From Patescibacteria group bacterium (lineage in GTDB: Bacteria > Patescibacteriota > UBA1384 > 2-12-FULL-50-11), in NCBI GenBank assembly GCA_038058635.1, contig JBBUAP010000001.1, positions 295,877 through 359,876 on the forward strand: DNA of 64,000 nt, given 5' to 3'. The notes beneath the pieces were generated by a model, which was given only the letters and a program-made list of their open reading frames with translations, did not search any database and was not told where the DNA came from. Within the stretch, counting starts at the first letter, position 1, and each line of letters opens with the position of its first letter. Shown piece after piece: positions 1,370-55,681 of this stretch. Position numbers and translations under genes: made by a program.

Positions 1370-1443
1370 GCGGGTATCGTATAACGGTATTATGCCACGT
1401 TGCCAACGTGGAGTCGCGGGTTCGACTCCCGCTACCCGCTCCA
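1370..1443 (+). tRNA. tRNA-Gly (anticodon GCC), CCA encoded
   Basis: Hand-folded cloverleaf. Acceptor GCGGGTA/TACCCGC. Anticodon stem CCACG/CGTGG with loop TTGCCAA. T-arm GCGGG-TTCGACT-CCCGC. Discriminator T then CCA. The D-arm is weak. Confidence 0.8.
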
Positions 1444-1866
1444 ATGTCAGACAACCAGAAAAAGCTTATTGAACTTGCCCGGAGTCTGCTTGGCAAGCTG
1501 TATAAATATGGGGCAAAATTGGAGGAAGCGCCGGAAAGTTTTGATTGCTCAAGTTTCGTTCAGTATCTCTACAAACAAATTGGGTTTGACCTGCCCCGAA
1601 CAGCGCTGGCTCAAGCTTCAATCGGTGAGGTGGTGGCTCCGGGTAAAGAGAAACTCCAGCCAGGCGACTTACTTTTCTTCAAGGGCGGTTGGGGGCATTA
1701 CAACCCGGAATTTCCCGATGGAATTGGTCATGTTGGAATTTATATTGGCGAGGATAAAGTTATTGACGCTCGCTCGGACGGGAAAGAGGGTGGAAGCGTA
1801 ATTGAAGAGCCAGTAATAAACTTTGTTGACCGACCGGATTTCGTGGTTACCAAAAGAATCATCTAA
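1444..1866 (+). CDS. NlpC/P60 family cell-wall peptidase
   Basis: Catalytic Cys context FDCSSFVQY and His context GHVGIYIG, as expected for NlpC/P60. The ATG directly follows the tRNA-Gly CCA. The longer ORF start (1408) overlaps the tRNA. Confidence 0.7.
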   Translation: MSDNQKKLIELARSLLGKLYKYGAKLEEAPESFDCSSFVQYLYKQIGFDLPRTALAQASIGEVVAPGKEKLQPGDLLFFKGGWGHYNPEFPDGIGHVGIYIGEDKVIDARSDGKEGGSVIEEPVINFVDRPDFVVTKRII

Positions 1867-1912
1867 AATAGTCTCGATAATTGGGCATGCTCCAGGTATA
1901 ATACAATCGTTC

Positions 1913-1983
1913 GGCCAGATGCCCGAGTGGTTAGGGAGCGGTCTGCAAAACCGCGTACAGGGGTCCGATTCCCCTTCTGGCCT
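1913..1983 (+). tRNA. tRNA-Cys (anticodon GCA)
   Basis: Acceptor GGCCAGA/TCTGGCC. Anticodon stem GCGGT/ACCGC with loop CTGCAAA. T-arm AGGGG-TCCGATT-CCCCT. Discriminator T. No CCA encoded. Confidence 0.75.
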
Positions 1984-1987
1984 CAAA

Positions 1988-2533
1988 ATGTTTCAGATTG
2001 TGCTTAACGGTCAAAAAATTAGAGCGACCGAGTTTAAATATCCGTGCCTTATTCATGGCAAACAAGGCTCGGGAGCTTCACAATTTACAATTTTCCTTGC
2101 GTCAGATCTATTAAGGCTGGGCAGGGAGGTTATATTTTTTAGTGCCTTTCCTGCCGGCAAGGCAAATCTTCTTGACCAGTTAGGAGACGCCTCTACAAAA
2201 GTGATGCTTCCCGAGTCTGGTAACGAAGAGGCCTTCATAGAGGCGCTTAACAAAGCTAGCGGGGATTCGTTGGCTGTAGTTAAGAATATCGAGGAGTACA
2301 GCAGACAGTTGATGCAGAAAGTTGTCGGTTATGAAAATATCGTCCTTTCCGGGGATTTTGATTTGTTTAAGCACACCGATATCCTACCAGAAGCCCAAAT
2401 ACGCATAATGTTTTCAGCTGTGAATCTACCAGGATTTCCTCGGCAGCTTCCCGCGCTCGACAAATATGAGGGGTTCCTAGCCAGTAACGCTTCGTCGGGT
2501 AGGGTTTCTCTCGCGGTTGGCGAGGGAGAGTAG
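1988..2533 (+). CDS. hypothetical protein, possible degenerate RecA/KaiC-like P-loop fold
   Basis: 181 aa when started at the ATG 5 nt after tRNA-Cys. The 1823 start overlaps the tRNA. A Walker-A-like HGKQGSGAS is weak. No family assigned. Confidence 0.4.
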   Translation: MFQIVLNGQKIRATEFKYPCLIHGKQGSGASQFTIFLASDLLRLGREVIFFSAFPAGKANLLDQLGDASTKVMLPESGNEEAFIEALNKASGDSLAVVKNIEEYSRQLMQKVVGYENIVLSGDFDLFKHTDILPEAQIRIMFSAVNLPGFPRQLPALDKYEGFLASNASSGRVSLAVGEGE

Positions 2534-2829: not shown

Positions 2830-4152
2830 ATGTCACTACCCGATTTTTGGGCTGATATATTCAAAAAACCTTGGCGTCGGCTCGGCCGAATCATTGCCAA
2901 GCACGAAAAAGTGCTCTTAGCGATTTTAGCGGTCGTTATTTTAATTAGCGGCGGTTTTTGGTATCGGCAATTCTCCCAAAAGGATGCCAGCCAGCCGACT
3001 ATCGGCGGCACTTATGTTGAGGGGATCGTGTTCGATTCCGACAAAAAAGAGCTCAATCAAATTACGATGCGGCTGACTAAAGCCGGATTGCTCGGTTTTT
3101 CCGCCGAGGGTAATTTGGAGCCGCAGTTGGCCGAGAAGTGGTCGACGAATGACACTAAAACGGAATTCCGGCTGACGCTGGAGGCGAACATTGATCGCGG
3201 GGAAATTGTTGACGCTCTCCAACAAAGAAGCGATCTGCTCGGCAATGTCGATGTTAAAGCCGATGCCGAACGCGATATCATCCTGACCGTGACCGAAGCT
3301 AGCCCGAGCCTGCCATTACTTTTAACTCGACCGATGTTTGATTACGGACCGTATAAACTCGGTAAAGCCAACGACCAAACGACCGTTTTCTCCCGCAACA
3401 CCCGCAAAGGAGCGCTGGCCGCCTACATCAATAAAATTATTATTCATACTTACCCAAACAACGATGAGCTGAAAGATGCCCTGGTTCGCAACCGAATTGA
3501 CGGGGCGGTTTTGCCTTCGAGCAACGAGACGATCAAAAAGTACCAACGAATTGAGATTGGTCTCAACCGCTATTACGCCGTCATGTTCAACATCAATAAA
3601 GTGCCGTTTCGGGATGTTGGTTTGCGCCAGAGCTTAATCAATAGTACTGGCGCTAGTGCTCAACCGTTCAGTCTGACGGCGCCAGATCAAGAGCCGTACA
3701 AGAGCTTGAGCCAAGAATTGGTGACGAAATGGCAAGCGCTGGGTGCTAAAGTCGAACTTGATTTGCGGCCGCTGGAAGAAGTGACTGGCTCGATCGGCCC
3801 GACTCGCAACTTCCAGGCCTTGCTCATCGGGATCGATTACGGTGCGGAGCTCGATCCTTACTACATCTGGCATTCAACTCAAGTTCGAGCAACTGGCAAC
3901 AATGTCACCGGCGTTCGGGAAGAGGCGGTGGATAAACTGGTTGACCAAATCCGTTCGACGCTTGATGTTAGCGACCGAGAAGATTTGATCGTCCAACTTC
4001 ACCAATTACTAGCGACCAAGGGTGTGGCCTTGATTCTTCAGGGCGAAAAAGTGGAATATTACCTATCAAACAAAATCCATTTTGTCGCCCCAACTTTGCC
4101 AAAATCCTCGGCTGACCGATTCCTCTTAGCCGCCCAGTGGTCAGTGAAGTAG
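2830..4152 (+). CDS. membrane-anchored extracellular solute-binding-like protein (possible SBP family 5 / peptide-binding fold)
   Basis: N-terminal TM anchor followed by a roughly 400-aa soluble domain whose layout resembles OppA/DppA-type binding proteins. No permease gene is adjacent. Confidence 0.4.
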   Translation: MSLPDFWADIFKKPWRRLGRIIAKHEKVLLAILAVVILISGGFWYRQFSQKDASQPTIGGTYVEGIVFDSDKKELNQITMRLTKAGLLGFSAEGNLEPQLAEKWSTNDTKTEFRLTLEANIDRGEIVDALQQRSDLLGNVDVKADAERDIILTVTEASPSLPLLLTRPMFDYGPYKLGKANDQTTVFSRNTRKGALAAYINKIIIHTYPNNDELKDALVRNRIDGAVLPSSNETIKKYQRIEIGLNRYYAVMFNINKVPFRDVGLRQSLINSTGASAQPFSLTAPDQEPYKSLSQELVTKWQALGAKVELDLRPLEEVTGSIGPTRNFQALLIGIDYGAELDPYYIWHSTQVRATGNNVTGVREEAVDKLVDQIRSTLDVSDREDLIVQLHQLLATKGVALILQGEKVEYYLSNKIHFVAPTLPKSSADRFLLAAQWSVK

Positions 4153-4193
4153 TGAAATTACCGCCTGTAACGGGTATGATATAGATTGGATTG

Positions 4194-4276
4194 GCCTGGG
4201 TGGTGGAATGGCAGACACGCTGGATTCAGGTTCCAGTGCTCGCAAGAGTGTGGAGGTTCGACTCCTCTTCCAGGCA
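4194..4276 (+). tRNA. tRNA-Leu (anticodon CAG), long variable arm
   Basis: Acceptor GCCTGGG/TCCAGGC with one G-U pair. Anticodon stem CTGGA/TCCAG with loop TTCAGGT. Variable hairpin GCTC-GCAA-GAG. T-arm GGAGG-TTCGACT-CCTCT. Discriminator A. Confidence 0.8.
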
Positions 4277-4279
4277 CAT

Positions 4280-4957
4280 ATGAAACCACTAGGGAGGGTG
4301 TGTTGCGATTGGACTCCAGAATTAGCGTATGCGATTGGATTGATAGTGACGGATGGGAGTTTATATAATGATGGACGACATCTAAACCTTACATCTAAAG
4401 ATCTTGAGCAAATAAAAACTTTCGCGAGTATTCTGGGGCTAAAAAATAAAATCGGCAAAAAAGCCAGTGGCAGTAACAAGTCTAAGGATTATTATAATTT
4501 TCAGTTCGGAGACGTCAACTTCTATCGCTTTCTTGTCTCGATTGGGGTGACTCCAAATAAAACTAAGACGATCGGATCGGTAGATATTCCGAAGCGATAC
4601 TTTCGCGATTTCTTGAGAGGTCACTTCGATGGGGACGGGTGCACGTATTCGTACTACGATCCTCGTTGGCGCAAGAGCTTCCTGCTTTACTTAAATTTTA
4701 TATCTGCAAGCAAAAAACACATGGTATGGATTTGTAAGGAGATAGCTAGCAATGCAGGGGTTCAGGGAAGGGTTACGCGCTCTGGCGCAAGTATTTTTCA
4801 GGTGCGCTTTGCAAAATACGATTCGATGAAATTATTTAGATTCATTTATTACAAACCCGAGCTACCCTGTTTGACTAGAAAGAGGCTAAAGTTTACCGAG
4901 GCAGTAACGCGTGCAACCCTAGCTACGGAGTCGACTACGCAGTATAATTACACGTGA
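4280..4957 (+). CDS. LAGLIDADG-family homing endonuclease (double-motif, single chain)
   Basis: Two LAGLIDADG motifs: LAYAIGLIVTDGSL and FLRGHFDGDGCT. The ATG lies 3 nt after the tRNA-Leu(CAG) discriminator and the stop lies 3 nt before tRNA-Leu(GAG). The longer 4208 start overlaps the tRNA. Confidence 0.8.
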   Translation: MKPLGRVCCDWTPELAYAIGLIVTDGSLYNDGRHLNLTSKDLEQIKTFASILGLKNKIGKKASGSNKSKDYYNFQFGDVNFYRFLVSIGVTPNKTKTIGSVDIPKRYFRDFLRGHFDGDGCTYSYYDPRWRKSFLLYLNFISASKKHMVWICKEIASNAGVQGRVTRSGASIFQVRFAKYDSMKLFRFIYYKPELPCLTRKRLKFTEAVTRATLATESTTQYNYT

Positions 4958-4960
4958 TTT

Positions 4961-5047
4961 GCCCAGGTGGAGAAATCGGTAAACTCGCAGCCTTGAGGTG
5001 GCTGTGCTCGAAAGAGCTTGGAGGTTCAAGTCCTCTCCTGGGCACCA
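4961..5047 (+). tRNA. tRNA-Leu (anticodon GAG), long variable arm, CCA encoded
   Basis: Acceptor GCCCAGG/CCTGGGC. Anticodon stem CAGCC/GGCTG with loop TTGAGGT. Variable hairpin. T-arm GGAGG-TTCAAGT-CCTCT. Discriminator A then CCA. Confidence 0.8.
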
Positions 5048-5149
5048 CGTAGTAACTTGTTCGGAAATGACTGCTCCGCGAGGGTGCGGCGGATCTTTAC
5101 CCAGCACCAGTAGTAACTTTTGGGCTGAGTGATACGATGATGAAACAGA

Positions 5150-22166: not shown

Positions 22167-22717
22167 CCCCTCTTTTTCAGGGTATTTTCCATCAATGTAT
22201 CGTAACCTTGTTCGATTCGATCAGAATCATCGATTCCTAAACGCTTGAGAAAATTAAATAATTCATCCTGAACTCCGCTTACGTCCCCGCCGTCTTCTAG
22301 AAGTTTCTCGAGCTCAATAAAAGTTCCCAACAGCTCAACTTCATCCAAACATATCTCAACGCCCTTAAACTGAGACTTCCGACGGACTTTCTTGATCTCT
22401 GACGCCAGCACGTAACCAAGCGCTTCCAGCATCTTCTCTGCTTGATCCGGATCACTAACGGCCGTCTCGAGTTCGAAGCTGTCTAGTTCGTTGGTCTCAG
22501 AGCGTTTTAGGGTTAAAAGCGACTTATCTTCTTGGCGACGGACTCTTAGGAAGCTGACCCCGATCTGTCGTGTTCCAAACTTCTCTTTCACCGAAGCAGG
22601 CGAAAAGACCCTGTCGTGTTGGGCTATAGGGGGTCCAAACTTTACGTTCAAATCCCCAAGTCTAGCTAGTACTAGGGATGGGTTCGAAACTCGTGCCTTG
22701 ACTTCTACCTCTCTCAT
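22163..22717 (-). CDS. CYTH-domain protein (class IV adenylate cyclase / triphosphatase-like)
   Basis: N-terminal EVEVKARV motif (the ExExK signature) and a spacing of acidic residues that fits the CYTH triphosphate-tunnel fold. Confidence 0.6.
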   Translation of the reverse strand: MREVEVKARVSNPSLVLARLGDLNVKFGPPIAQHDRVFSPASVKEKFGTRQIGVSFLRVRRQEDKSLLTLKRSETNELDSFELETAVSDPDQAEKMLEALGYVLASEIKKVRRKSQFKGVEICLDEVELLGTFIELEKLLEDGGDVSGVQDELFNFLKRLGIDDSDRIEQGYDTLMENTLKKRG

Positions 22718-23009
22718 TTAGGATATTTTATAGACATTTGCGGTTGGTGTAAACCAAAAGACTCAAGCACCGTGTGGAGACCTTTTTCCTCCAAATACTC
22801 GAGTTCTTTTGGTAATTTGACCGCCCTCTGTCGCTATAGGTGAGCTATCTGCTCGGCCTCGTTTAGTGATCTGGCCGATCCCGAAAGCTCTTCTGTCGAT
22901 CTTGGGTTGTCTTGGGGCAGAAGGTAGAAGGAGCAAACAATGAAAAACACTACTTTACTTTGCCAGATTATCGTATGAAGTCATTAGCATAAGCTACGAA
23001 GAACTGTCT

Positions 23010-26789: not shown

Positions 26790-26848
26790 CATACAAAAGA
26801 CGACAAAAGCCCTTGGCGTTTCAGGAGGGGGTTTGGTACACTACCAAC

Positions 26849-28060
26849 ATGATTGATCGTGATTTATTGCGTCAACATCCCGAGATTGTTAAAGAGTCGC
26901 TGACCAAACGCGGCGAAGATCCTAAAAAGCTGGATCGATATCTCGAACTCGAAAAAAAGTGGCGCGCTATCGCTAGCCAAGTTGAGCCGTTACAGGCAGA
27001 AAAGAACAAACTCTCCCGGGGCGGTAAACCTAGCCCAGCCCTATTAAAGAAAGCTCAGGAATTGAGCAAAAAGATTGCTGCCAAAGAAGGCGACCTCAAG
27101 GCCGCCGAGATGGCCTATCAGACCGCCGCCAAAGCATTGCCAAATCTTGTGGCCGATGACGTACCGGTCGGACCAGGCGAATCAGCCAACACTACTATCG
27201 GGCAATTTGGCCGGATTCGTCTTCAAACTGGCAAGCCGCATCACGAGCTGATGACGAAGCTCGGTTGGCTAGACCTAAAAACAGCCGCCGAATTTTCCGG
27301 ATCTCGCTTTCGTTACCTAAAAGGCAATGCCGCCTGGGCTCATCTACAGATCATGGGCGAAGCCCTGCGCTTAGCCGTCCATCACGGTTTTACCCCAGTT
27401 ATTCCGCCGGTCATGACGAGAACAGAAACGCTCGAGAAAGCCGGCTTCTTGCCTTTTGCCGAAGATGATTTTTTTAAGATTGAGGGCGATGACCTGCTCT
27501 TAACCGGAACGAGCGAGCAAACCCTCTTAGCTTTGATGGCGGGCAAAACTTTCAAGGAGAGTGAGCTACCAATCCGCTTGGTCGGTTTTTCGACTTGCTT
27601 CCGGAGAGAGGTTGGTTCTTATGGTAAGGATGTTGAGGGCATGTTCCGTCAACATCAATTCGACAAAGTTGAGATGGTTTCAATTACCACGCCCGAAACA
27701 GCTCTCGAAGAGCACGAGTTCCTCGTCTCGATGGAAGAAATGTTCGTCAAGAAGTTGGGCTTGCCTTATCAGAAGGTTTTGATCGGGAGCGGCGATTTAG
27801 GGCCAACGGCGGTCAAAAAGATTGATATCGAGGCCTGGTTTCCGTCGCAAGGGCGTTATCGCGAAACCCATTCGGCCAGTAACTGTACCGATTTTCAGGC
27901 TCGGCGGCTGGGCATTAAATACCGAACCCTTGACGGCCAAGAGCGACTGACCCACACCCTCAATGGCACGCTGGCGACCGAGCGATTGCTTATTTCATAC
28001 ATTGAGAACAACCAACGGCCTGACGGCTCGGTTAATCTGCCCCGTCATTGGCGGGTATAG
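26849..28060 (+). CDS. serS: serine--tRNA ligase
   Basis: N-terminal coiled-coil arm and class II motifs (FRRE, GLG). The start is taken at MIDRDLL, with an AGGAGG-like sequence upstream. Confidence 0.85.
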   Translation: MIDRDLLRQHPEIVKESLTKRGEDPKKLDRYLELEKKWRAIASQVEPLQAEKNKLSRGGKPSPALLKKAQELSKKIAAKEGDLKAAEMAYQTAAKALPNLVADDVPVGPGESANTTIGQFGRIRLQTGKPHHELMTKLGWLDLKTAAEFSGSRFRYLKGNAAWAHLQIMGEALRLAVHHGFTPVIPPVMTRTETLEKAGFLPFAEDDFFKIEGDDLLLTGTSEQTLLALMAGKTFKESELPIRLVGFSTCFRREVGSYGKDVEGMFRQHQFDKVEMVSITTPETALEEHEFLVSMEEMFVKKLGLPYQKVLIGSGDLGPTAVKKIDIEAWFPSQGRYRETHSASNCTDFQARRLGIKYRTLDGQERLTHTLNGTLATERLLISYIENNQRPDGSVNLPRHWRV

Positions 28061-38891: not shown

Positions 38892-40046
38892 CTAAACAAT
38901 CGGATTGGTCGGGACGGCTTCGGTCGAGTGAGCCAGAAGATTAAAGACAGAGCCAACGCCTAGGAGGCAGAAAATAAAGCTGATGAAGGCGCCGATAATT
39001 GGTACGAATATCAGGAGCGCGCTAACCACTACTCCCAGCGCCACTGTCCCAATCGTCAGTTGGTAACCCGCCTCGCGCTTGAACAATCGATAGAGCCAAC
39101 TACCGAGCATTATCTTGCCGATGATCGAGCCGATCATCAGGGTTAAGAGCCAAACGACGAACACGATCCCGGCCAACCCGATGCCAACAATACTCATGGC
39201 CAAAACTATCACGGCGAAGATTGTTACAAGCATTGCGATCAAGCCGTAACCAATCGCCGACAGCGGGGAGCCGAAAGCAAAGTCGGCCACTTGACGCGTG
39301 GTTCGCGGCCAGAAACGGATGATTAACCATCCTAACAAGATGGCGCCAAGTATTCGCAGGAGATATCCAAGCGTAAAGGCAGTGCCGAAGAGAAAGCCAT
39401 ACTTATCAAATTGCGAGGCCTGGTATTGGGTGTAATTGGTTTGACCGGTCACAACGGCGCCGGTTTCGATTGAGGCCGACTTGTTCGATCGGTAATTAAA
39501 GTCGCCGTTAACCTTGGCTTTACTAGTCAGTCGGATATTGTCGGCGTGAATATTGGACGAGCCAACCGACCCTTCAAGGACGACCGAACCAGCAGTAATT
39601 TTCAATTCACCAACAATCTTACCGTTAATGGTGACAGTGCCGCTAGCTACATAAAGACCGCCCATAATCTCGGCCGAATCGGCGATAATTACATCCCCAC
39701 CAGCGATATAGACATCGCCCTCAACCTTGCCCGACAAGGTGACAGTCCCACCGGCAATTCTGACATGGCGCAAAACATGACTTCGAACCGTCACAGTGTC
39801 GCCAGCGATGAACAAGCTGTTGTCTACTTCGCCGTTAGCTAAAATCGTTTGACCGACGATCAATAAATCGCCCTTAATTTTGGCATCGGTGATAATATTC
39901 TTACCAGCCAAATGGAGATCTGTCGGTGTTTCCGTTTCATGGATAACAACCGATTCTTGGTTGGACCGAAATTCGGCTGCCTCGGCCGGCAAGATGAAGG
40001 CCCCAATCAGTAATCCAATGGCTAAAAGGCGCCAAATTGTTTTCAT
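38892..40046 (-). CDS. bactofilin-like beta-helix repeat domain fused to a polytopic membrane domain
   Basis: Signal peptide, repeated G-x-V/I-x-G-D-V motifs as in bactofilin / DUF583, then about 6 TM helices. Confidence 0.5.
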   Translation of the reverse strand: MKTIWRLLAIGLLIGAFILPAEAAEFRSNQESVVIHETETPTDLHLAGKNIITDAKIKGDLLIVGQTILANGEVDNSLFIAGDTVTVRSHVLRHVRIAGGTVTLSGKVEGDVYIAGGDVIIADSAEIMGGLYVASGTVTINGKIVGELKITAGSVVLEGSVGSSNIHADNIRLTSKAKVNGDFNYRSNKSASIETGAVVTGQTNYTQYQASQFDKYGFLFGTAFTLGYLLRILGAILLGWLIIRFWPRTTRQVADFAFGSPLSAIGYGLIAMLVTIFAVIVLAMSIVGIGLAGIVFVVWLLTLMIGSIIGKIMLGSWLYRLFKREAGYQLTIGTVALGVVVSALLIFVPIIGAFISFIFCLLGVGSVFNLLAHSTEAVPTNPIV

Positions 40047-40111
40047 GCTTTTATCATATTCTTTTTGCCCCGAGTGGCAAGAGGGTTCTTTTCAGGTATA
40101 TTGAGCAAATC

Positions 40112-45821: not shown

Positions 45822-46421
45822 TTAGTTGTTCTTGGAGTTGGTGACGAAAGCGTTTTGGGAGCAGAGAGTTGGGTTAGTCGAAAAGTCTTGGGCAATACAG
45901 AATAGACGGAGAAAGCCATCACGTTCATACTCGTCTACTAACTGGGAGATCGGGCCGATGTAATTAATGTTTTGGGTGCGTTCCATCCGTGCCATAAGAT
46001 AAAAACCGGTTTTACTGGAGTCTTTGGGGAGGCCGTAGTAGAGATATTGGCCGAAGGCGCTGGGGGCGCAGTCGCCGCTATTGATACTAAATTTGGCTGA
46101 AGGATCTTGAGGAATATTATCTAAATATTTTGGTGCTAAATATTTCCAAACTCCAGGGCTTTGACAACCATAATTGGCCTCCAACTGCCATGATGCTTGA
46201 GGTAAGTTTCTGCCATCTCTGCTGTCGAATAGCGGGTATTCTCGATTATCCAGGTAGAACTGTTCCAAGCCGTTGCGGATAAATTGCAAATCAGTAATTC
46301 GCTGGCTATCGCGTGATCGCGTTAGGGACGCGGCGTATGTATAGGCTCCTATCGACGCCAAAATTCCGATTATCGCCATAACAGTTAGAACTTCAATCAA
46401 TGTAAAACCTCGCAACCTCAT
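45822..46421 (-). CDS. type IV pilin / pseudopilin (prepilin-type N-terminal cleavage-methylation domain)
   Basis: N-terminus MRLRGFTLIEVLTVMAIIGILASIGA. A G|FTLIE cleavage motif followed by a hydrophobic helix. Confidence 0.8.
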   Translation of the reverse strand: MRLRGFTLIEVLTVMAIIGILASIGAYTYAASLTRSRDSQRITDLQFIRNGLEQFYLDNREYPLFDSRDGRNLPQASWQLEANYGCQSPGVWKYLAPKYLDNIPQDPSAKFSINSGDCAPSAFGQYLYYGLPKDSSKTGFYLMARMERTQNINYIGPISQLVDEYERDGFLRLFCIAQDFSTNPTLCSQNAFVTNSKNN

Positions 46422-46519
46422 CTCTTATAGATTACCGATTTTTTTGGTATTTGAAAATCAATCATAGAGAGGCAAGAAAATCCGTAAATTAGCAAACGCA
46501 ACTTTGGTGCTTGACTTGC

Positions 46520-47239
46520 CTAGTAGCCGTCAAAATCTTCGGATTTTATCTGGCCCTCGGGCACGCCGAGCTTTTTGGCCAAGGCGATCATCGCCGATAC
46601 TAAATCTGGTGGTCCAGCGGTGTAGAAAACACTTTCAGCCGGATTCTTGACGAATTTCTTAACAATGTCTACATCGATCCGACCGGTTTCACCGATCCAA
46701 TCTTTTGGCGAGGTATCAGTGTATGACGGGATATAGTGAAGGTTAGGGTTGACTCTGGCAGACTCTTTCAATTCAACTTGGTAGGCGGCAGTTTTTGGCG
46801 AGGCGTTGGCATAGAACAGATATATTTCGCGTTTCTCACTAGTCTCCTTGAGCTCGTCGATCATACTCATGAATGGAGTGATTCCGATGCCGCCAACAAG
46901 GAAAACAGCCGGCTTGGTTGCATCTTGACGTAGGGTCATCCGGCCCATCGGCTCTTTGAGCTTAATTGTGGTGCCGAGCGGCATTTCTTTCAGCCAATTC
47001 TTAAAAGCCGTATTGCGCATTCGAGTGGCGATGACGACTTTCTTTTCACCGGGGGCGTTGACGAAAGAAAATGTCCGAATATTACCCTCGGAATCGGTAT
47101 AAGGCGGGTCGATCAAGGTGAAATCGGTATGTTGACCGGCCTTGAACTGGTAGACACTTTCGCCAGTATCAAAGGTAAACTCCATTGTCTCTTCGGCAAT
47201 TTCCCGACGATTCGTTAAGGTCATTAAATAATCCATCAA
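46520..47239 (-). CDS. FNR-like FAD/NAD(P)-binding oxidoreductase
   Basis: FAD-binding beta-barrel plus a GGIGITPF NAD(P)-binding motif. Confidence 0.6.
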   Translation of the reverse strand: MMDYLMTLTNRREIAEETMEFTFDTGESVYQFKAGQHTDFTLIDPPYTDSEGNIRTFSFVNAPGEKKVVIATRMRNTAFKNWLKEMPLGTTIKLKEPMGRMTLRQDATKPAVFLVGGIGITPFMSMIDELKETSEKREIYLFYANASPKTAAYQVELKESARVNPNLHYIPSYTDTSPKDWIGETGRIDVDIVKKFVKNPAESVFYTAGPPDLVSAMIALAKKLGVPEGQIKSEDFDGY

Positions 47240-47282
47240 CCCATCGTTAACCGATTTGGCGTCAACTGCAAGTTCTTATTGC

Positions 47283-47531
47283 GGGCTTGGCGGGAGCGTA
47301 TTCGCACCCTGTTAGCAGGTTTGTCCGAAGACGACCGGCGTTTCGTGGACGCAACTCCCTTTGACAGCAACCCAGACTCTTCGAAGAATGGAGGAGTAGC
47401 ATGAACAAGGCGAACCATTCCGACTTGACCGCATTCTATCAACACATCTCCGAGATGGGCAGACTGGAGATTGCCAAGCGACGAGCCCAGGGCGAAACGA
47501 TTGGTCAGGCACCACTGGGGTTCCGTAAAGT
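47283..47531 (+). repeat. direct repeat copy 1, about 250 bp, roughly 85% identical to 48439-48683
   Basis: Long near-identical stretch (GGGCTTGGCGGGAGCG...CACCACTGGGGTT) that spans the start of a recombinase-fragment ORF. Confidence 0.8.
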
Positions 47532-47790
47532 CCAAGTGAGCGGCAAATCTACTATCGCGCCAGATCCAGAAACCTTCCCGCTGTTGGTGCTGGCACTGCA
47601 GATGCGCCAAGACGGTAGCACGCTCAGGGAGGTTTGTGCGTTCACGGCAAAAAAGGGCTTGCGGTCTAAACGCGGCAAGGTCATCGGGCTGTCGAGCATG
47701 CTGAAGATACTAAGTCGAGTTACTTGCGAAACTCCAAAATCAAGCGTGGTCGGCCAGCCCAATCTCTGCAGAATACTCTCCAGTTCTTGA
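47401..47790 (+). pseudogene. serine-recombinase fragment (alpha-E helix plus start of the recombinase domain only)
   Basis: ISEMGRLEIAKRRAQGETIGQAPLGFRK and the downstream DPETF...LREVCAF segment resemble the linker and recombinase-domain region of large serine recombinases. The catalytic domain and zinc-ribbon domain are absent. Confidence 0.45.
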
Positions 47791-48388
47791 TACCGGCCAC
47801 TTTGCAGAGCCGTTCATAGCTCTTCTCGTCATGCAAGAAGTGTGGGTTTGATTGGCCCTCCACAACGTCGTTTGAGATCCGGCCTTCCGGCCCGGATCGA
47901 GTCCCGCTGGTAATTTCGGCCTCACTTGCCGGTTGATAGGTCATACTCTCTACCAAGGCAAACCCGTTAGGCCGGATTACCCGAAACATTTCTCTCAGAG
48001 CTTGCCGCTGCTCGGTTCCTCCAAGCAACTCGCTGAAAGCCGACCACAGACATATTGCTGCGTCGAAAGAGTTCTCGCTGTATGGCAGTTGAGTCATCGA
48101 ACCCAAATCGAAAATGCTCGAGAGCTTTTCCTTGCGTACAGTTATCCTGGCCCGCTCGATTAGCTTCTTCGAGAGATCTATCCCAGTTACGTGATATCCG
48201 TCTTTAGCAAGGAGAATTGCAATCCGACCATAGCCGCAGCCTACGTCCAGCACGTCAGCATGGGGTGTCAGCATGGCTTTGATAATATTCGCCGTTGCCT
48301 TATCCCAGTCTGGACGACTCCGGGAAGCAAGTATGTCCGGTCCGATCGTGTTGTAGAAGTCTCTGTTGATCTGTTCGGAGTCCGCCAT
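47720..48388 (-). CDS. class I SAM-dependent methyltransferase (small-molecule type)
   Basis: Motif I VLDVGCGYGR. No DPPY/NPPW motif, so not a DNA methyltransferase. Confidence 0.7.
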   Translation of the reverse strand: MADSEQINRDFYNTIGPDILASRSRPDWDKATANIIKAMLTPHADVLDVGCGYGRIAILLAKDGYHVTGIDLSKKLIERARITVRKEKLSSIFDLGSMTQLPYSENSFDAAICLWSAFSELLGGTEQRQALREMFRVIRPNGFALVESMTYQPASEAEITSGTRSGPEGRISNDVVEGQSNPHFLHDEKSYERLCKVAGIKNWRVFCRDWAGRPRLILEFRK

Positions 48389-48438
48389 GGCAACAATCTA
48401 CCATAAAGGAAGTTCTTTATATATGTGTTCACTTTGGT

Positions 48439-48683
48439 GGGCTTGGCGGGAGCGCATTCGCACCCTGTTAGCAGGTTTGTCCGAAGACGACCGGCGTTTC
48501 GCGGATGCAACTCCTTTTGACAGCATCCCAGACTCTTCGAAGAATGGAGGAGTAGCATGAGCAAGCAGAGCGATCTTACTGCCTTCTACCAAACCATCTC
48601 CGAGATGGGCAGGCTGGAGATTGCCAGGAGGCGAGCCGAAGGGGAGACAATTGGTCCGGCACCACTGGGGTTTCGAAAGGTCG
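48439..48683 (+). repeat. direct repeat copy 2
   Basis: Pairs with 47283-47531. Confidence 0.8.
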
Positions 48684-48754
48684 TGGTGGTCGGCGCCCGA
48701 CACGTGGCCCAAGATTCCCCAACCGGTTGCTCCCCCGTTGCTCCCCACGGGTAA
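48557..48754 (+). pseudogene. second, shorter serine-recombinase fragment
   Basis: MSKQSDLTAFYQTISEMGRLEIARRRAEGETIGPAPLGFRKV is homologous to the N-terminus of the 47401 ORF, then it diverges and stops. Confidence 0.4.
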
Positions 48755-48804
48755 ATCGCAAAGCCCAATGAGACACTCCAAAAGCCGATTTTGAACCTAA
48801 AACC

Positions 48805-49092
48805 TGGAGCCGATGAGCGGATTTGAACCGCTGACCTGCTGTTTACAAACCACCGGCAAGCATGCCCGGCGGGGTAGGTCCTGGTTCCTCAGAGGTCCTT
48901 CGAGACCCCCAGATCATTGTTGGGAGTATTGCATCCAATATGTCAGGCGACACCGACAAACGAAACCGGACTGGCAGACGCCTCGGTCGTGAAGTCCAAG
49001 AATCTCAGAATCCAGTCGCCCCGATGAAAGACGGGGAGACACGGGCTGGGCCCCAAGCCCGAAGGGTCGATAATGGGAAACCTCGCATCGGC
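48805..49092 (-). ncRNA. candidate structured RNA with a tRNA-like 3' end (tmRNA-like, or a remnant of a tRNA/tmRNA integration target)
   Basis: Minus strand: canonical T-arm AGCGG-TTCAAAT-CCGCT, acceptor 3' strand CATCGGC, then T-CCA. The exact complement GCCGATG sits 281 nt upstream and is followed by a TCGAC motif. The roughly 390-nt region is GC-rich with no convincing ORF. Confidence 0.25.
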
Positions 49093-49189
49093 GAGGGCAG
49101 ACATCGGAAAGAACCAGGCCTCGAAGGGAGGACATCAATCCCACACGTAACGTTCGTCGAACACGACTCTAGCCTCCCGAGGGAGCGCT

Positions 49190-50413
49190 CTAGTCAGCCG
49201 GTCTAGCGCCCGTGAGCCCAAAGAGGATCGCACCCGGCCTGTCAGCCGCATCCAACCGCCGCGCAATCTCCAAAGCACCCCAAATGGCATAGGCGGACTC
49301 GGGAGCAGGGGCAATATGCTCACATTCTTCAAAGAGTGCGGCCGCACTCTTCGCTTCCCTGAGCGAGCACGTTAGGCTTGTTAGCCTACCCCTTGACGCG
49401 AGCTCAACGAGCAGAGGAGTCGTGACAGGATACGAGAGACCGGGCGCCCAAGTTTCTTCAGAACTCTTGATGCCCTTGGCATCCGGAAGGCAGGTTGTTA
49501 AACTCCGATATAGCGGACCTTGAGACCCAAACGTACGAACGGGTTTTATGTCGCGGTGTCCAAGTTTATGAGCGTGGTCCGGCTCCACCGCCACAAACTC
49601 GGGGGCCGCAACGTCTCCGCCAACGGGATGATCCAACAAGAAGGGCAGCACCATGCCTCCAAAATTGGTGCCGCCACCACAGCAGCCTACAATCGCATCG
49701 GGAACAACAGACATGCTTGCAAGCTGCTCCTTGGACTCCTGCCCGATTACACTATTAAAACCAACAACAGAATTCAGGAAACAGCCAACTGCGAATCTCG
49801 CCCTCCGCTCCACTAACAGATCCAGGCTTGGTCGGACTTCTGATGCCTCTATGACTCCACCCCATCTATGCACCTGCTCCAGCAACTGCTTGCGACTTGC
49901 CAACAGTGCTTGGGGGGCCATGATCGTGGCCCTGATGCCAAATTGGGCGCAAGCCCATGCTACCGCCACACCCCAATAACCGGAGAGTGTAAAGGCTATC
50001 AACTCCTGAATACCCTCTTGCTTCGCAAACCAGGCTTGCGCTAAGGCCGCGTTGGCCTTGTAGCTGTGCACGGGCGATGCGGTTTCGTCCTTGAACAGGA
50101 TCGTGCTTCGAATGCCAAGAGACCGGCACAGTGTCTTCGCTTCACGTAATGGCGTCGGCCGCCAATCAGCGAGCATTCTGTGCAGGTCGCCGGGAATCTG
50201 TCTTCGCTCCGACCCAACCTCAAGCTGCCAAGCTCCATCCACCAGGATCTTCGCGTGTTGCCCTGGGTCATATCGCTCCGTACACTCCCCGTCTATCCAA
50301 GGTCCCAACTTTAGAACTCCTGGCCACTCTCCAGGAACGCGCCAGCATATCGGAACCCCGATCGTCCGCGCTCGAGTGTCTAAGGGCGATCCACTGTTCA
50401 TTTTCACAAGCAT
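49190..50413 (-). CDS. TrpB2-type PLP-dependent tryptophan-synthase-beta-like enzyme
   Basis: PLP-lysine context LFKDETASPVHSYKANAA, a glycine-rich GCCGGGTNFGG loop and an N-terminal extension as in TrpB2. Confidence 0.65.
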   Translation of the reverse strand: MLVKMNSGSPLDTRARTIGVPICWRVPGEWPGVLKLGPWIDGECTERYDPGQHAKILVDGAWQLEVGSERRQIPGDLHRMLADWRPTPLREAKTLCRSLGIRSTILFKDETASPVHSYKANAALAQAWFAKQEGIQELIAFTLSGYWGVAVAWACAQFGIRATIMAPQALLASRKQLLEQVHRWGGVIEASEVRPSLDLLVERRARFAVGCFLNSVVGFNSVIGQESKEQLASMSVVPDAIVGCCGGGTNFGGMVLPFLLDHPVGGDVAAPEFVAVEPDHAHKLGHRDIKPVRTFGSQGPLYRSLTTCLPDAKGIKSSEETWAPGLSYPVTTPLLVELASRGRLTSLTCSLREAKSAAALFEECEHIAPAPESAYAIWGALEIARRLDAADRPGAILFGLTGARPAD

Positions 50414-50415
50414 AT

Positions 50416-51279
50416 CTACAAAAACTCTATTTGACCAGCATCACAAGATACTAAAGCAGGATGCCTCTTGGGAAGCGAAGTGAACCATTCTTCTAGTAAC
50501 CGCTCGAAATCCACCTTTTGCATCTTCGGTCCCCACAAACCGGCACCCCCGGAACTTAGCTCGTAGGCTCTTTTGTAAGTTTCCGCGGTAAGACGATCGA
50601 CTACGCTTTGAAGAGTTCCGGCTGCCCCACAATACGACTTCAATAAGGCAATCAAGACAACCTCAGCTTCGTTACGTCCCTCGCGCCATTTATCGAACAC
50701 GCCGACATAAAACGCAGCCCCTGCAGGATCAGGATCCCAATATTGCCATCCGACAGTCTCTTCTCTGGATCCAGAAGGCGGAGCACCAGCAATGAGCACT
50801 CTATCATCGCTGACTGAAAACCGAATAGGAAGATCCTGAATCGCCCAAAAGCGTATTTTTCCCGGGTTAGGTGCGTTTCGTACGTACATGAAATGCAAAC
50901 GCCAAAGGAGGTGCGGAAACATAGCGTCCAACGCAACCGGCCCGCAAAAGTCTGATTCCACACCATTGCGCAGGATTGCTGACATCGCTTCCTCCATCTC
51001 GCTTGAAACCCACCAAACCCGCGCTACCGATACTACGCGTTTCCTAGCGGAGACATATAACTCCATAGCTTGACGCAAGTAGAATCGCAGGCCCTGGAAC
51101 TGCTGAAACTCGGCGAGGAACTGCTTGTACTCTTTCCTGGCGACGCTCAAATCGTCCTTGACAAGTCTAATCTCCCTTAACACGGCGAGCATATCCACTC
51201 TTGCTCTCAAATACAACCACACCGTGAGCAGGAGGGATAGGATCGAGGAAAGTGACGCGATAATTACAAAGACTTCCAT
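50416..51279 (-). CDS. hypothetical protein with an N-terminal TM helix (GC-rich island cargo)
   Basis: The start is taken at MEVFVIIASL. The longer 51426 start would overlap the upstream permease gene. Confidence 0.4.
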   Translation of the reverse strand: MEVFVIIASLSSILSLLLTVWLYLRARVDMLAVLREIRLVKDDLSVARKEYKQFLAEFQQFQGLRFYLRQAMELYVSARKRVVSVARVWWVSSEMEEAMSAILRNGVESDFCGPVALDAMFPHLLWRLHFMYVRNAPNPGKIRFWAIQDLPIRFSVSDDRVLIAGAPPSGSREETVGWQYWDPDPAGAAFYVGVFDKWREGRNEAEVVLIALLKSYCGAAGTLQSVVDRLTAETYKRAYELSSGGAGLWGPKMQKVDFERLLEEWFTSLPKRHPALVSCDAGQIEFL

Positions 51280-51352
51280 AGCGTCCTCTTGCGAACAATA
51301 ATTGACATATCGACCCCTGAAATGGACATGATGGCGCTTGACCTGAACATCA

Positions 51353-52114
51353 TTACATGCCCTGCCAGTGAATGAAACGACGCTCGAGGAATGTGATAAT
51401 CCGGTTGAGCAGGAGCCCGATAACACCTATAACAACAATAGCTACCCACATATCGGGAACTCGATATGCGAAGCGCGAATCCTGGATGCGTTGGCCGAGA
51501 CCGCCGACTCCTCCGCCGAGCATCTCAGTAACGACAATCAGGACTAGTGAATTTGAAAGGGAAAGGCGTGCTGCGGAGAGCAGGGGCGACGACATCTCCC
51601 AGGCAATGACCTTGGTAAATACGATCCAGGGACCAGCGCCGAGTGTCTTAAGATAAGCCTCTCGCTGAGGTCGGCAAGCGCGCACCCCGTAGATAATATT
51701 GATGACGAAAATCATGGCACAGCCGAAGGCCGCTGCCGCGACCTGGGAACCACTCCCTATTCCTAGCCATAAGACAAAAGCTGGAAAAAGCGCTGAGACG
51801 GGTATGGAACGAGCAAAGTCGACCGGCAACTCAAATGCGTCAGACAGCCAGTTAATGCGACCCAATAGTAGGCCCAGGGGGACACCGATGCCAAATCCTA
51901 GGGCGAAGGCGAGCGCTGCCTTACCCAGAGTGCTTCCAGTATCCTCCCAAAAAGTCGAGGATCGCAAGTTTTCAATAAGCGCTTCCATCCATTCTACTGG
52001 AGCGGCAAGCACGTACGTTGCGTTAGGAAAGAGAATAGGAAGCAAGAGCCACAAGAAAAAGAGAATCAAAAGCCCGGCAATCCGAAGAGGCAAAGCCCGC
52101 AATCCAGTCCGCAA
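51353..52114 (-). CDS. ABC transporter permease (SsuC/TauC-type, binding-protein-dependent)
   Basis: EAA-loop region and 6 TM helices with SsuC-like layout. Confidence 0.7.
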   Translation of the reverse strand: MRTGLRALPLRIAGLLILFFLWLLLPILFPNATYVLAAPVEWMEALIENLRSSTFWEDTGSTLGKAALAFALGFGIGVPLGLLLGRINWLSDAFELPVDFARSIPVSALFPAFVLWLGIGSGSQVAAAAFGCAMIFVINIIYGVRACRPQREAYLKTLGAGPWIVFTKVIAWEMSSPLLSAARLSLSNSLVLIVVTEMLGGGVGGLGQRIQDSRFAYRVPDMWVAIVVIGVIGLLLNRIITFLERRFIHWQGM

Positions 52115-52508
52115 CTTTGCTGAGAGGGAGATCTACTTCTGAGGAGCTAAGAAGGTCCCGGACTTGACTCTCAGCCTCGGAGACTGGCACATGGCGGAGT
52201 TCCAGCGGAAGCCTCAAGTTGCCTAAATTCGAACGCCAAGGAAGGAGAGTTTGCCTATAATCCTGAAATAGATAGCCTACGCTGTCGCCGCTCAACGGGC
52301 TCCCAGCAAGCAAGACTTCTCCACTCTTCGGCTTGATGAGCCCCGCTACAGTGTTCAGGATCGTTGTCTTGCCTGACCCGTTCATTCCAAGCAGTACGCC
52401 AACGGACGACGCGGGCACGTTGAAGTTAATGTCGGCAACAACACTGCTACCGTTGCTGTAAGAAACCTCGAGGTTTGAAACCGTCAGGCTATCCAGAAGG
52501 GAGCTCAT
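52023..52508 (-). pseudogene. truncated ABC ATPase (SsuB/TauB-like)
   Basis: Walker A GMNGSGKTT and Q-loop YLFQD are present. The frame ends before the LSGGQ signature and Walker B, and it overlaps the permease gene by about 90 nt. Confidence 0.5.
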
Positions 52509-52605
52509 GGGGATTTACCCAGAACTAGCTGCTGAACGTCAATCGTACCTTTTAGCTCTCCGTTTAGACGGAGCAACTCTGCAAACTTGTTCACCAGAGT
52601 CGTGT

Positions 52606-52780
52606 CTATTCGTGCACCAATCCGGTAAGCTGCATGTCAGAACGAAGTTCGATTAGCTCCGCGTCCTTTGGAAGCTGAAGCTCTGGGCGAAGACCCAAGC
52701 GTGCGTATAGCCGCATTGTTGAGCCTGGAAATGTCCCGATTCGCTTTCCTTTGAGTTGTGCAACTCGTTGGATGTCGCCA
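52606..52780 (-). pseudogene. possible remnant of an SsuA-like substrate-binding protein
   Basis: Only the C-terminal roughly 55 aa of the 52606-53133 ORF (KGKRIGTFPGSTMRLYARLGLRPELQL) look binding-protein-like. The rest is antisense to the recombinase gene. Confidence 0.2.
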
Positions 52781-54445: not shown

Positions 54446-54480
54446 AAAGGCGACGTCCTAGGCCACTAGACGATGGGACC
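54407..54480 (-). tRNA. tRNA-Glu (anticodon UUC)
   Basis: Minus strand: acceptor GGTCCCA/TGGGACC, anticodon stem TCGCC/GGCGA with loop TTTTCAT, T-arm GCGGG-TTCGACT-CCCGC. Discriminator A. Confidence 0.8.
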
Positions 54481-54684
54481 ATATTTTTGCCCTAATACTT
54501 AACTAACTTACAGGTTTTTGCCACGGTTGGCCTGCGGCCAAGTCCTAGGCCATTGTCGCCCCTCGTGAACTCGGGGCTCGCTTGTCGCTCTGCAGCTCCA
54601 AGTAGACGATGGGACCAATACGCCTATTTTACGAATTCTAATGAGTAAATCGAATTCGTACTCGAGTTCATTTTACCTTTAAAA

Positions 54685-55587
54685 ATGCCGAGAAACAACG
54701 ATTCGGGGTATGATAAGAGCATGAAAGGCGTGTTTCTATATCTAGTGGCTGGGTTGATGTTGGTTGGGGGCGGTTTGGTTTGGGTGGCATTATTTCATGG
54801 AATCCAGTCCTCTTCCGCCACGCCTCTTTTTGAACCTAAGAAAAACGAGGCGGTCTCAGAGCCATATTTACAGAACGACTCAACCGTTCCCTCGACCCCG
54901 TCGTCTGTCTATGTACCAATTTTGATGTATCACTACATTCGCGACTACCAAGATCGAACCGATGATCCGCTAGGAATTCAGCTCTCCGTTTCGCCTAAAA
55001 CATTTGACAAACAACTATCGAATTTGAAAGCAGCTGGCTATGAGACGATATCGCTTGAGGATTTTGCTGGCGGTAAATACAAACCCAAGTCAGTTGTTCT
55101 CACTTTTGACGATGGCTATGACGACCATTACACGAATGCTCTGCCAATCTTGGAAAAATATCAGGCCACCGCGACATTTTTTATCGTTTCGGGCTTTCTT
55201 GGACGAACTGGGTATATGACGACGCCTCAGGTTCAGCAATTAAGACTAGCGGGTATGGAAATTGGTGGCCATACGGTTACCCATCTGAATTTGGCTAACG
55301 CCCAGTACGAGAAGGCAATTGACGAGATTAGTAATAGCCTGATATCTCGCGATCCGGTTTTTGCCTACCCATCAGGGAAGTATAACCCCGTTACGCTTGA
55401 TATCGTTTCCGGTCTTGGCATCAAAGCAGCCGTCACCACTAATTTGGGGGTAGCAACCGAAAAAAGCAGCTTGTATGAATTGCCACGCATTCGGGTTAAG
55501 GAACATACCGATCTCTTGAAGCGGATTAATGAGGAAATAGCCATTGCGAAGCGTCAGCTCGCACCTTCCCAACGGAGCAAAGATTAG
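54685..55587 (+). CDS. polysaccharide deacetylase (NodB-homology domain), membrane-anchored
   Basis: NodB motifs LTFDDGYDDHYT and GGHTVTHLNL. N-terminal TM helix. Confidence 0.75.
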   Translation: MPRNNDSGYDKSMKGVFLYLVAGLMLVGGGLVWVALFHGIQSSSATPLFEPKKNEAVSEPYLQNDSTVPSTPSSVYVPILMYHYIRDYQDRTDDPLGIQLSVSPKTFDKQLSNLKAAGYETISLEDFAGGKYKPKSVVLTFDDGYDDHYTNALPILEKYQATATFFIVSGFLGRTGYMTTPQVQQLRLAGMEIGGHTVTHLNLANAQYEKAIDEISNSLISRDPVFAYPSGKYNPVTLDIVSGLGIKAAVTTNLGVATEKSSLYELPRIRVKEHTDLLKRINEEIAIAKRQLAPSQRSKD

Positions 55588-55607
55588 TTAAAATGACAGG
55601 TGTAGTC

Positions 55608-55679: not shown

Positions 55680-55681
55680 CA

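Follow-up and report, generated by a model that had tools for sequence, protein, structure and literature searches.

The window analysed here is a 64,000-nucleotide (nt) stretch of the genome of a Patescibacteria group bacterium (GenBank assembly GCA_038058635.1, contig JBBUAP010000001.1, positions 295,877 to 359,876), in which four tRNA genes are each followed, on the same strand and within 0–4 nt, by the ATG of a protein gene. The window has a G+C content of 49.8% and comes from a bacterium of the candidate phyla radiation (CPR). An NlpC/P60 protein identical to the one encoded in the window was identified in a Hainich groundwater metagenome (ENA ERZ1292632, well H43, 0.1 μm fraction), and the nearest named relatives of the window's cyclophilin belong to 'Candidatus Berkelbacteria' (88% identity); the host is a Berkelbacteria-like groundwater member of the Patescibacteria.

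The tRNA genes of the window were located with ARAGORN and the Rfam tRNA covariance model, two independent finders; ARAGORN reported six tRNAs and one tmRNA. The four tRNAs that abut protein genes were recovered by both methods and lie on the forward strand: tRNA-Gly(GCC) (1370–1443; Rfam 62.4 bits), with its discriminator at 1440 and an encoded CCA at 1441–1443, and three tRNAs without an encoded CCA, namely tRNA-Cys(GCA) (1913–1983; 57.7 bits), tRNA-Leu(CAG) (4194–4276; 48.5 bits) and tRNA-Val(GAC) (55608–55679; 69.8 bits). A fifth forward-strand tRNA found by both, tRNA-Leu(GAG) (4961–5044; 52.2 bits), is separated by a 105-nt spacer from the next open reading frame (ORF; ATG 5150), and the sixth, tRNA-Glu (54406–54480, reverse strand), has a recombinase gene on the opposite strand that runs into its 3′ part. 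The next tRNA, tRNA-Arg(TCT), lies 2 kb past the window edge (locus L170, 7.5 kb of extra sequence) and has a convergent gene downstream. Four of the five window tRNAs with a co-directional downstream gene are therefore tightly joined to it, the exception being tRNA-Leu(GAG).

The genes at the four junctions, all on the forward strand, encode an NlpC/P60 protein (C40 peptidase; 1444–1866; 140 amino acids, aa), a 181-aa protein that we call ORF181 (1988–2533), a LAGLIDADG endonuclease (4280–4957; 225 aa) and a cyclophilin-type peptidyl-prolyl isomerase (55682–56290; 202 aa). With hyphens setting off the discriminator, the spacer and the start codon, the junctions read ...cgcT-CCA-ATG for tRNA-Gly (ATG at 1444, 3 nt past the discriminator and abutting the CCA), ...ggccT-CAAA-ATG for tRNA-Cys (1988; 4 nt, spacer 1984–1987), ...aggcA-CAT-ATG for tRNA-Leu(CAG) (4280; 3 nt, spacer 4277–4279) and ...gcccA-CA-ATG for tRNA-Val (55682; 2 nt, spacer 55680–55681). 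These are the positions given by an earlier note on this DNA, and they are exact: ARAGORN and the covariance model agree at all four loci. The tRNA boundaries hold under the covariance model, and a shift of the boundaries is ruled out on this basis.

Spacers of 2–4 nt leave no room for a ribosome-binding site, as had been claimed: the motifs GGAG, GAGG and AGGA are absent at −4 to −17 from all four ATGs, the closest such sequences being T-stem sequences 23–28 nt upstream. In predicted folds of the precursors, the cloverleaf stops 2–4 nt from an AUG that, with the first codons, is mostly unpaired. At 20,000 random CPR positions, an ATG that starts an ORF of 60 aa or more is met within 0–4 nt with p = 0.0165, and the chance that at least four of six tRNAs are tight is 1.1e-6.

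Start codons of the tRNA-adjacent genes

The earlier note had allowed that the true start codons might lie further downstream; homology supports the tRNA-adjacent ATG for all four genes. The NlpC/P60 protein, identified by its Pfam domain, has no signal peptide, and its 331 homologues are nearly all 137–150 aa long, with N-termini aligned within ±3 aa of Met1444; a start at TTG 1519, the next one in frame, would truncate the domain. Signal-less NlpC/P60 proteins of ~140 aa are placed in tRNA clusters across the Patescibacteria, typically in the order tRNA-Met, NlpC/P60, tRNA-Asp, and in the CPR loci examined around this gene (L013–L068, around position 10000) the spacing to the tRNA ranges from 2 to ~300 nt.

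ORF181 has no Pfam match and belongs to a rare lineage-specific family (4 clusters among 5.8 billion proteins). NCBI annotates the identical 181-aa product (P0121), and Met1 is in register with the N-termini of the relatives. A predicted structural model of low confidence (pLDDT 61) resembles the RecA/KaiC P-loop core (Foldseek TM ~0.5), and the sequence contains a Walker A-like GKQGSGAS without the canonical lysine-serine/threonine; the protein may thus be an inactive ATPase fold.

The LAGLIDADG endonuclease (Pfam) is double-motif, free-standing and intact. Its homologues are 210–240 aa long, and residue 2 of the query aligns to residues 6–7 in several of them; homology supports ATG 4280 and is also compatible with GTG 4298. 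The stop codon lies 3 nt 5′ of tRNA-Leu(GAG), and the gene thus has a tRNA on either side: it is wedged between two tRNA-Leu genes with 3 nt on each side, outside any intron. A TATAAT for tRNA-Leu(GAG) is located inside the 3′ end of the endonuclease gene (~4943–4948).

In the cyclophilin (Pfam), residues 1–25 form a hydrophobic membrane anchor that homologues down to ~60% identity also have, although its sequence diverges, and several of those homologues have no Met where the internal ATG 55808 falls; to judge from these alignments, the tRNA-adjacent ATG is a real start. That internal ATG, located just past the anchor and a linker, is preceded by AAGGAG at a distance of 9 nt (55793–55810, forward strand), a possible second start led by a Shine-Dalgarno (SD) motif, which would give a soluble form of 160 aa. 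The AAGGAG-ATG stretch is 100% identical in a Berkelbacteria relative (locus L084), is kept as 'KETxTM' in close relatives only, and a 160-aa version also occurs in databases (P0139). The gene may therefore give rise to a membrane-anchored form from a leaderless start and a soluble 160-aa form from an SD-led start.

Public versions of 204, 249 and 160 aa exist for three of the four genes, reflecting gene callers that extend the ORF into the tRNA or truncate it to an internal start. The N-terminal extensions of three database proteins (P0002, P0122 and P0129) are translated tRNA T-arms and acceptor stems, which is independent evidence of the same junctions in other genomes.

Promoters, relatives and recurrence of the junctions

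Each of the four tRNAs is preceded on the forward strand by a promoter-like sequence that leaves only a few nt of 5′ leader: TTTACA-17-TAGAAT before tRNA-Gly (1332–1360, with the −10 box ending 9 nt before the tRNA), TCGATA-17-TATAAT before tRNA-Cys (1874–1902; the TATAAT is kept in loci L086 and L172), GTGAAA-17-TATGAT before tRNA-Leu(CAG) (4152–4180) and TTCCCA-17-TAAAAT before tRNA-Val (55566–55594; kept in L084). Promoter scans found no site within the four tRNAs, and neither a promoter nor a terminator between tRNA and ORF, where the gap is too short for one. The hexamers at −12 to −7 before the four ATGs (CTACCC, TCTGGC, TTCCAG and TCACCG) all fail to fit TANNNT, and a promoter within the tRNA 3′ ends is rejected on this sequence. 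We infer that the protein genes would hardly be transcribed except from the tRNA promoter.

Elsewhere in the window the start-site signals are different in kind. Of 50 genes whose starts are reasonably clear, 19 show a TANNNT that ends 4–9 nt upstream of the start codon, peaking sharply at 6–7 nt (6.5% expected), and an SD-like tetramer occurs in 8, which is background level (8% expected); by these counts leaderless-type promoters otherwise dominate in the host. Examples include the genes for SerRS (TGgTACACT 6 nt before ATG 26849; 26834–26851) and a CYTH protein (TAAAAT 7 nt before ATG 22717; 22717–22735, reverse strand), in both of which the N-terminus is set by position 1 of the Pfam profile, as well as reverse-strand sites at 40046–40062 and 48388–48405. 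The −10 signature at window genes appears to be that of primary leaderless mRNAs, and to apply to about 40% of genes. Leaderless mRNAs with a −10 box ~7 nt upstream have been described in Actinobacteria, Deinococcus and Archaea (PMC4633059, PMC4007540, PMC3848588), and the anti-SD motif has been lost in part of the Parcubacteria (PMC9297842). In the literature searched, coverage of which was incomplete, we found no statement that CPR bacteria or Berkelbacteria are rich in leaderless mRNAs or translate them.

The tight spacing had been proposed as something to look for in related genomes, and it is kept in relatives. In two Berkelbacteria assemblies (L084 and L085, ~82% DNA identity), the stems of tRNA-Val have changed with compensation, and the A-CA-ATG junction and the TAAAAT are unchanged. 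In L086 and L087, where ORF181 is 72% identical, the junction with tRNA-Cys reads T-CGAA-ATG, with one base substituted and the 4-nt spacing kept. In a more distant relative (L088, 48% identity), no tRNA precedes the ORF181 homologue, and TATGAT stands 6 nt before a GTG that aligns to Met1 of the window protein; there, by this alignment, the same N-terminus is produced from a leaderless promoter. A further case is the tRNA-Gly slot. L172 and L086 have an identical upstream flank and tRNA-Gly(GCC); in L172 the CCA is followed directly by the ATG of NlpC/P60, as in the window, and in L086 by the ATG of a 241-aa methyltransferase, with a TATAAT promoter and tRNA-Cys downstream of the slot gene in each. 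The gene in the tRNA-Gly slot has, on this comparison, been exchanged with the junction kept to the nucleotide.

For a broader view we took the surroundings of NlpC/P60 orthologues in GTDB species representatives, nearly all of them Patescibacteria (80 loci); ARAGORN identified 168 tRNAs there, and their discriminators were placed by our own acceptor-stem pairing script. An ATG with an ORF of at least 60 aa lies at 0–4 nt from 16 of the 168 tRNAs (2.8 expected, p = 3e-8; antisense control 3) and within 10 nt from 26 (5.9 expected); starts become steadily sparser away from the tRNA end and are at background level past ~20 nt. Tight junctions across the CPR are a recurrent minority, at ~10% of tRNAs for spacings up to 4 nt and 15% for spacings up to 10 nt. 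The earlier note had spoken of a genome-wide expression strategy; the pattern is seen here over ~80 kb of this genome, where four of the five eligible tRNAs are tight, and across the CPR loci such junctions belong to the minority just described. Within the window itself, tRNA-adjacent genes are 4 of ~60 genes, and most window genes have their own −10 box or are operon-internal; tRNA punctuation does not organise most genes.

The ORFs behind CPR tRNA ends are genuine genes of diverse kinds, with products that include PheRS-alpha, the CCA-adding enzyme (L043), TsaC/Sua5 and an RluA-type synthase, as well as EamA, ABC transporter, SET and GT2 proteins. Start codons at tight CPR junctions are ATG in 25 cases, GTG in 1 and TTG in 2, and all four window starts are ATG. 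At the NlpC/P60 orthologues, a canonical −10 box stands 6–7 nt before the ATG in at least 13 loci, a tRNA (Met, Pro, Arg or Gly) ends 2–7 nt before the start in 8 loci plus the window and L006 (the latter with GTG), and an SD motif is present in about 4 loci. A −10 box at leaderless distance and a tRNA 3′ end are, on this evidence, alternative contexts of one start codon; of the comparative arguments, their interchangeability speaks most strongly for a shared role in placing the AUG at an mRNA 5′ end.

An encoded CCA is missing in 123 of the 168 CPR tRNA genes. C is the first nucleotide after the discriminator in 160 of the 168 (L004–L083), with the full CCA in only 45; as a rule, these CPR genomes seem to encode the CCA in part, as C74. 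In L063 and L079 the junction is CC-ATG, with the A of the start codon doubling as the A of the would-be CCA; L067 probably reads CCC-ATG. A Jorgensenbacteria locus (L057, 9879–10003) carries a 24-nt duplicate of the tRNA-Met 3′ end (GGGGTTTGAATCCCACCCCAGCCA) directly before the CAAAAA-ATG of NlpC/P60; the real tRNA-Met, 122 nt upstream, has CC-ATG and an ORF of 12 codons behind it. This looks like an insertion into a former tight junction, in which the tRNA end was duplicated.

Several further counts from these data carry less information. Gaps of up to 5 nt between a stop codon and a tRNA 5′ end number 7 vs 1.6 expected, against a random-position null that is poorly matched and to which we give little weight. 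In a metagenome scan with the cyclophilin, the matches listed reach no more than 66% identity, come from mixed phyla and include 1 tight junction among 16 tRNAs, a weak control that is uninformative on junction conservation. A per-locus leaderless index does not differ between loci with and without tight junctions, and is too noisy in AT-rich genomes. The same comparison does show that the CPR loci are poor in SD motifs, with SD-like starts at ~14%, vs 41% and 77% in two Bacillales loci obtained by the same search.

tRNA maturation as a possible source of mRNA 5′ ends

We consider it probable, at roughly 0.6, that tRNA and mRNA are cotranscribed at these loci and that tRNA 3′ processing releases a near-leaderless mRNA, which would make them a bacterial counterpart of mitochondrial tRNA punctuation. 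In this scheme, each of the four tRNAs would head a transcription unit with its own sigma-70-type promoter, with the protein gene cotranscribed. An endonuclease, most likely of the RNase Z type, would remove the 3′ trailer at the discriminator or beside it, and CCA would then be added to the tRNA; the released trailer would be the mRNA, with a 5′-monophosphate and 0–4 nt before the AUG. The predicted 5′ ends are pCCAAUG (NlpC/P60), pCAAAAUG (ORF181), pCAUAUG (LAGLIDADG) and pCAAUG (cyclophilin). Such mRNAs would be translated by the leaderless 5′-terminal-AUG initiation that the host appears to use for about 40% of its genes, at which a −10 box 6–7 nt upstream would make transcription start at the A of the ATG. 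The 3′ end of the LAGLIDADG mRNA would be set by RNase P cleavage of tRNA-Leu(GAG), 3 nt past the stop codon. Cotranscription, the identity of the nuclease, the exact cut and the translation of the processed fragment are the parts of this scheme that we infer from genome sequence.

Several features of the loci constrain where and how the cut would be made. Three of the four docked tRNAs in the window, and most CPR tRNA genes as counted above, lack an encoded CCA, and so their trailers must be removed at the discriminator and CCA added. At loci with CC-ATG, cleavage 3′ of the CCA would break up the start codon, which places the cut at or just past the discriminator. Trimming by an exonuclease from a distant 3′ end would degrade the mRNA itself, and translation of an uncut precursor would set the ribosome against the folded tRNA; endonucleolytic release is favoured for these reasons. 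In the bacteria studied to date, RNase Z makes this cut and leaves a 5′-phosphate on the trailer; CCA-less tRNAs are the established substrates of such trimming at the discriminator by Bacillus subtilis RNase Z. The earlier note had proposed leaderless mRNAs produced by RNase P/Z-type processing of the cotranscripts. What this predicts for the sequence agrees with what we found; the part that changes is the leader itself, since an RNase Z-like cut would leave 2–4 nt before the AUG and not zero. In that case RNase P would have a part to play at one place only, where the LAGLIDADG mRNA ends.

A number of observations weigh against release by tRNA maturation. A crude HxHxDH motif screen of the window and of 1.9 Mb of further locus sequence turned up no RNase Z gene; in addition, two CPR papers searched for RNase Z, P, E and Y contain no mention of them. 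An encoded CCA blocks RNase Z in B. subtilis, and the tRNA-Gly of the window has one. Extra 5′ nucleotides lower leaderless initiation in Escherichia coli and mycobacteria, and leaders of 2–4 nt are predicted here. RNase J acts preferentially on RNAs with a 5′-monophosphate, and the released mRNA might for that reason have a short lifetime. The cyclophilin gene has its conserved internal SD motif and ATG. Tight spacing alone is what operon compaction gives in this genome, where 18 of 46 co-directional protein-gene pairs are no more than 10 nt apart. Lastly, when the anchor gene and the window are excluded from the CPR survey, the excess of starts is modest, at 6 vs 2.5 expected for spacings up to 4 nt (p = 0.04) and 13 vs 5.4 expected for spacings up to 10 nt (p = 0.003).

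The same compaction underlies an alternative in which the gene is translated while still joined to the tRNA or to a partial precursor, through SD-independent internal initiation at an A-rich, weakly structured start, with the spacing a matter of economy between neighbouring genes. SD motifs are rare in the window and in the CPR loci, so internal initiation without SD must exist; the protein-gene pairs just mentioned are likewise closely spaced, and the AUG and first codons are mostly unpaired in the predicted folds. However, the ribosome would have to accommodate or unfold a whole tRNA in its mRNA exit path (given a 30S footprint of about −15 to +15), and re-initiation by a terminating ribosome, which can serve adjacent protein genes, cannot explain these starts: the peculiarity of the tRNA junctions is that no ribosome arrives through a tRNA. 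Moreover, the tRNAs need maturation anyway, so the cut product arises regardless, and at other loci the NlpC/P60 orthologue shows a −10 box at the spacing of leaderless genes where a long leader lacking an SD motif might have been expected. We regard translation from the attached precursor as unlikely. The opposite possibility, that promoters inside the tRNA genes yield ordinary primary leaderless transcripts and processing is irrelevant, gains some appeal from leaderless promoters being the norm in this genome and from T-loop sequences such as TTCAAAT, which are loosely −10-like. Against it, none of the four hexamers at −12 to −7 fits TANNNT, the scans placed no site in the four tRNAs, and the junction is found behind five or more tRNA species, although their sequences are bound by the demands of tRNA function; we judge it distinctly improbable.

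It is also conceivable that the junctions are a neutral by-product of compaction or of insertion at tRNA hot spots, with the true starts downstream (ATG 55808, GTG 4298) or the genes barely expressed. The AAGGAG 9 nt before ATG 55808 and the calling of the 160-aa form by some pipelines speak for this, as do the compatibility of GTG 4298 with homology, the mobility of LAGLIDADG genes, and the role of tRNA genes as known integration sites, with one integrated element at the tRNA-Glu of the window. By contrast, NlpC/P60 has no alternative start that would preserve its domain, and the cyclophilin anchor is conserved as protein while distant homologues lack the internal Met. Junction spacing also survives both divergence and gene replacement, and housekeeping genes (PheRS-alpha, the CCA-adding enzyme and TsaC) are likewise docked in other CPR. 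A neutral origin therefore seems improbable to us. As for chance, or an artefact of tRNA boundaries or annotation, the window holds just six tRNAs and the callers disagree on three of the four starts (204, 249 and 160 aa); on the other side, two independent tRNA methods agree and the boundaries do not move by more than 10 nt, the probability under chance is about 1e-6, the longer gene calls merely run into tRNA sequence, and the junctions recur in relatives. This explanation we find barely credible. Release of the mRNA by tRNA maturation is thus the reading we prefer.

Neighbouring features, known systems and significance

The remaining tRNAs of the window and their surroundings show other arrangements. 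Just 3′ of the reverse-strand tRNA-Glu (54398–54402), the junction is A-CTCA-ATG, with the ATG 4 nt past the discriminator; the ORF that it opens has only ~45 codons and is antisense to the 3′ end of the recombinase gene. This ATG may be the leftover of a tRNA-docked gene displaced by an integrated element, or may be due to chance. The region to the left (46408–54632) is variable, with purL/purQ in its place in the relative L084. The recombinase (52772–54442) is of the large serine type (Resolvase, Recombinase and Zn_ribbon_recom domains), and a repeat at 54603–54632, 120 nt away, duplicates 30 nt from the tRNA-Glu 5′ end and its flank. The region at tRNA-Glu looks like an integrated element.

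In the spacer after tRNA-Leu(GAG) (5045–5124) there is a direct repeat, CCACGTAGTAACTT at 5045 and CACCAGTAGTAACTT at 5105. This spacer has no credible Rfam match, the sole hit being SNORD56 at 18.1 bits (E = 0.45; gathering score 36). The tmRNA (59594–59982; 151.7 bits) encodes an unusually long tag of 25 residues, ANVMSKVKATVANAFGSFVAQPVFA; the tag, with C-terminal VLA, is kept in L084. In contrast to the tRNAs, the tmRNA has its own hairpin and T-run downstream.

The closest known system is tRNA punctuation in animal mitochondria, reportedly described by Ojala, Montoya and Attardi in 1981. In both systems, tRNA genes abut protein genes on the same strand at distances of 0–4 nt, normal tRNA excision would define the mRNA ends (as we propose for the window), and the resulting mRNAs, with 5′ untranslated regions (UTRs) of 0–3 nt and no SD motif, would undergo leaderless translation; the LAGLIDADG gene is flanked by tRNAs on both sides. 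However, the window is part of the chromosome of a free-living or episymbiotic bacterium, its tRNA–gene pairs each have their own promoter in place of one genome-length polycistron, its stop codons are complete with none finished by polyadenylation, the arrangement extends to no more than a subset of tRNAs and a minor fraction of genes, and processing is a proposed step.

Among bacterial precedents, the E. coli thrU-tyrU-glyT-thrT-tufB operon joins tRNAs and an mRNA under one promoter and separates them by tRNA processing; unlike the window junctions, with spacers of 0–4 nt and no SD motif, it has a spacer of ~100 nt with a normal SD motif and gives a leadered mRNA. In E. coli, 3′ETS-leuZ is a functional RNA freed from the trailer of a tRNA precursor. 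It resembles the present case in that a by-product of tRNA 3′ maturation is functional, and differs in being a small regulatory sponge RNA and not an mRNA. MazF of E. coli produces leaderless mRNAs by an endonuclease cut just 5′ of the AUG, in a model that is contested, according to the account of Vesper et al. (2011) relayed in PMC3848588. That system relies on a stress-induced toxin that cuts at ACA and leaves a 5′-OH, and on specialised ribosomes, whereas the window would depend on constitutive housekeeping tRNA maturation.

Primary leaderless mRNAs (PMC4633059, PMC4007540, PMC3848588) share with the docked genes the lack of an SD motif and a strong preference for AUG, and would share the lack or near-lack of a 5′ UTR, which at the docked genes would measure 0–4 nt for a cut at the discriminator or past the CCA; the window genome has the −10 signature at 6–7 nt, and NlpC/P60 switches between the two contexts across the CPR. 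The docked genes differ in having no −10 box at the proper distance, and their 5′ ends would come from RNA processing, with a 5′-monophosphate and probably 2–4 extra nt. No description of tRNA-adjacent leaderless genes in bacteria was found in the literature searched, of which our coverage was incomplete.

Beyond this genome, we would give even odds to the more general proposition that CPR bacteria use tRNA genes as removable 5′ leaders whose maturation sets leaderless 5′ ends, that this arrangement has evolved repeatedly (at least five tRNA species and at least 15 genes), and that the tRNA-flanked slots serve as exchangeable cassettes. If the proposed mechanism is true, CPR bacteria, a large and poorly understood radiation, would make protein genes, including housekeeping genes for PheRS-alpha and the CCA-adding enzyme, depend for their expression on the promoters and the maturation of tRNAs. 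The capacity for translation would thereby be tied to gene expression in a way that has until now been known from organelles alone. Leaderless translation would then be normal on processed mRNAs with a 5′-monophosphate, which bears on substrate recognition, and the systematic error of gene callers at tRNA junctions would be accounted for. CPR bacteria have become genetically tractable only recently, and for expression in these organisms the junctions would supply a design rule: a tRNA, 2–4 nt, and an ATG.

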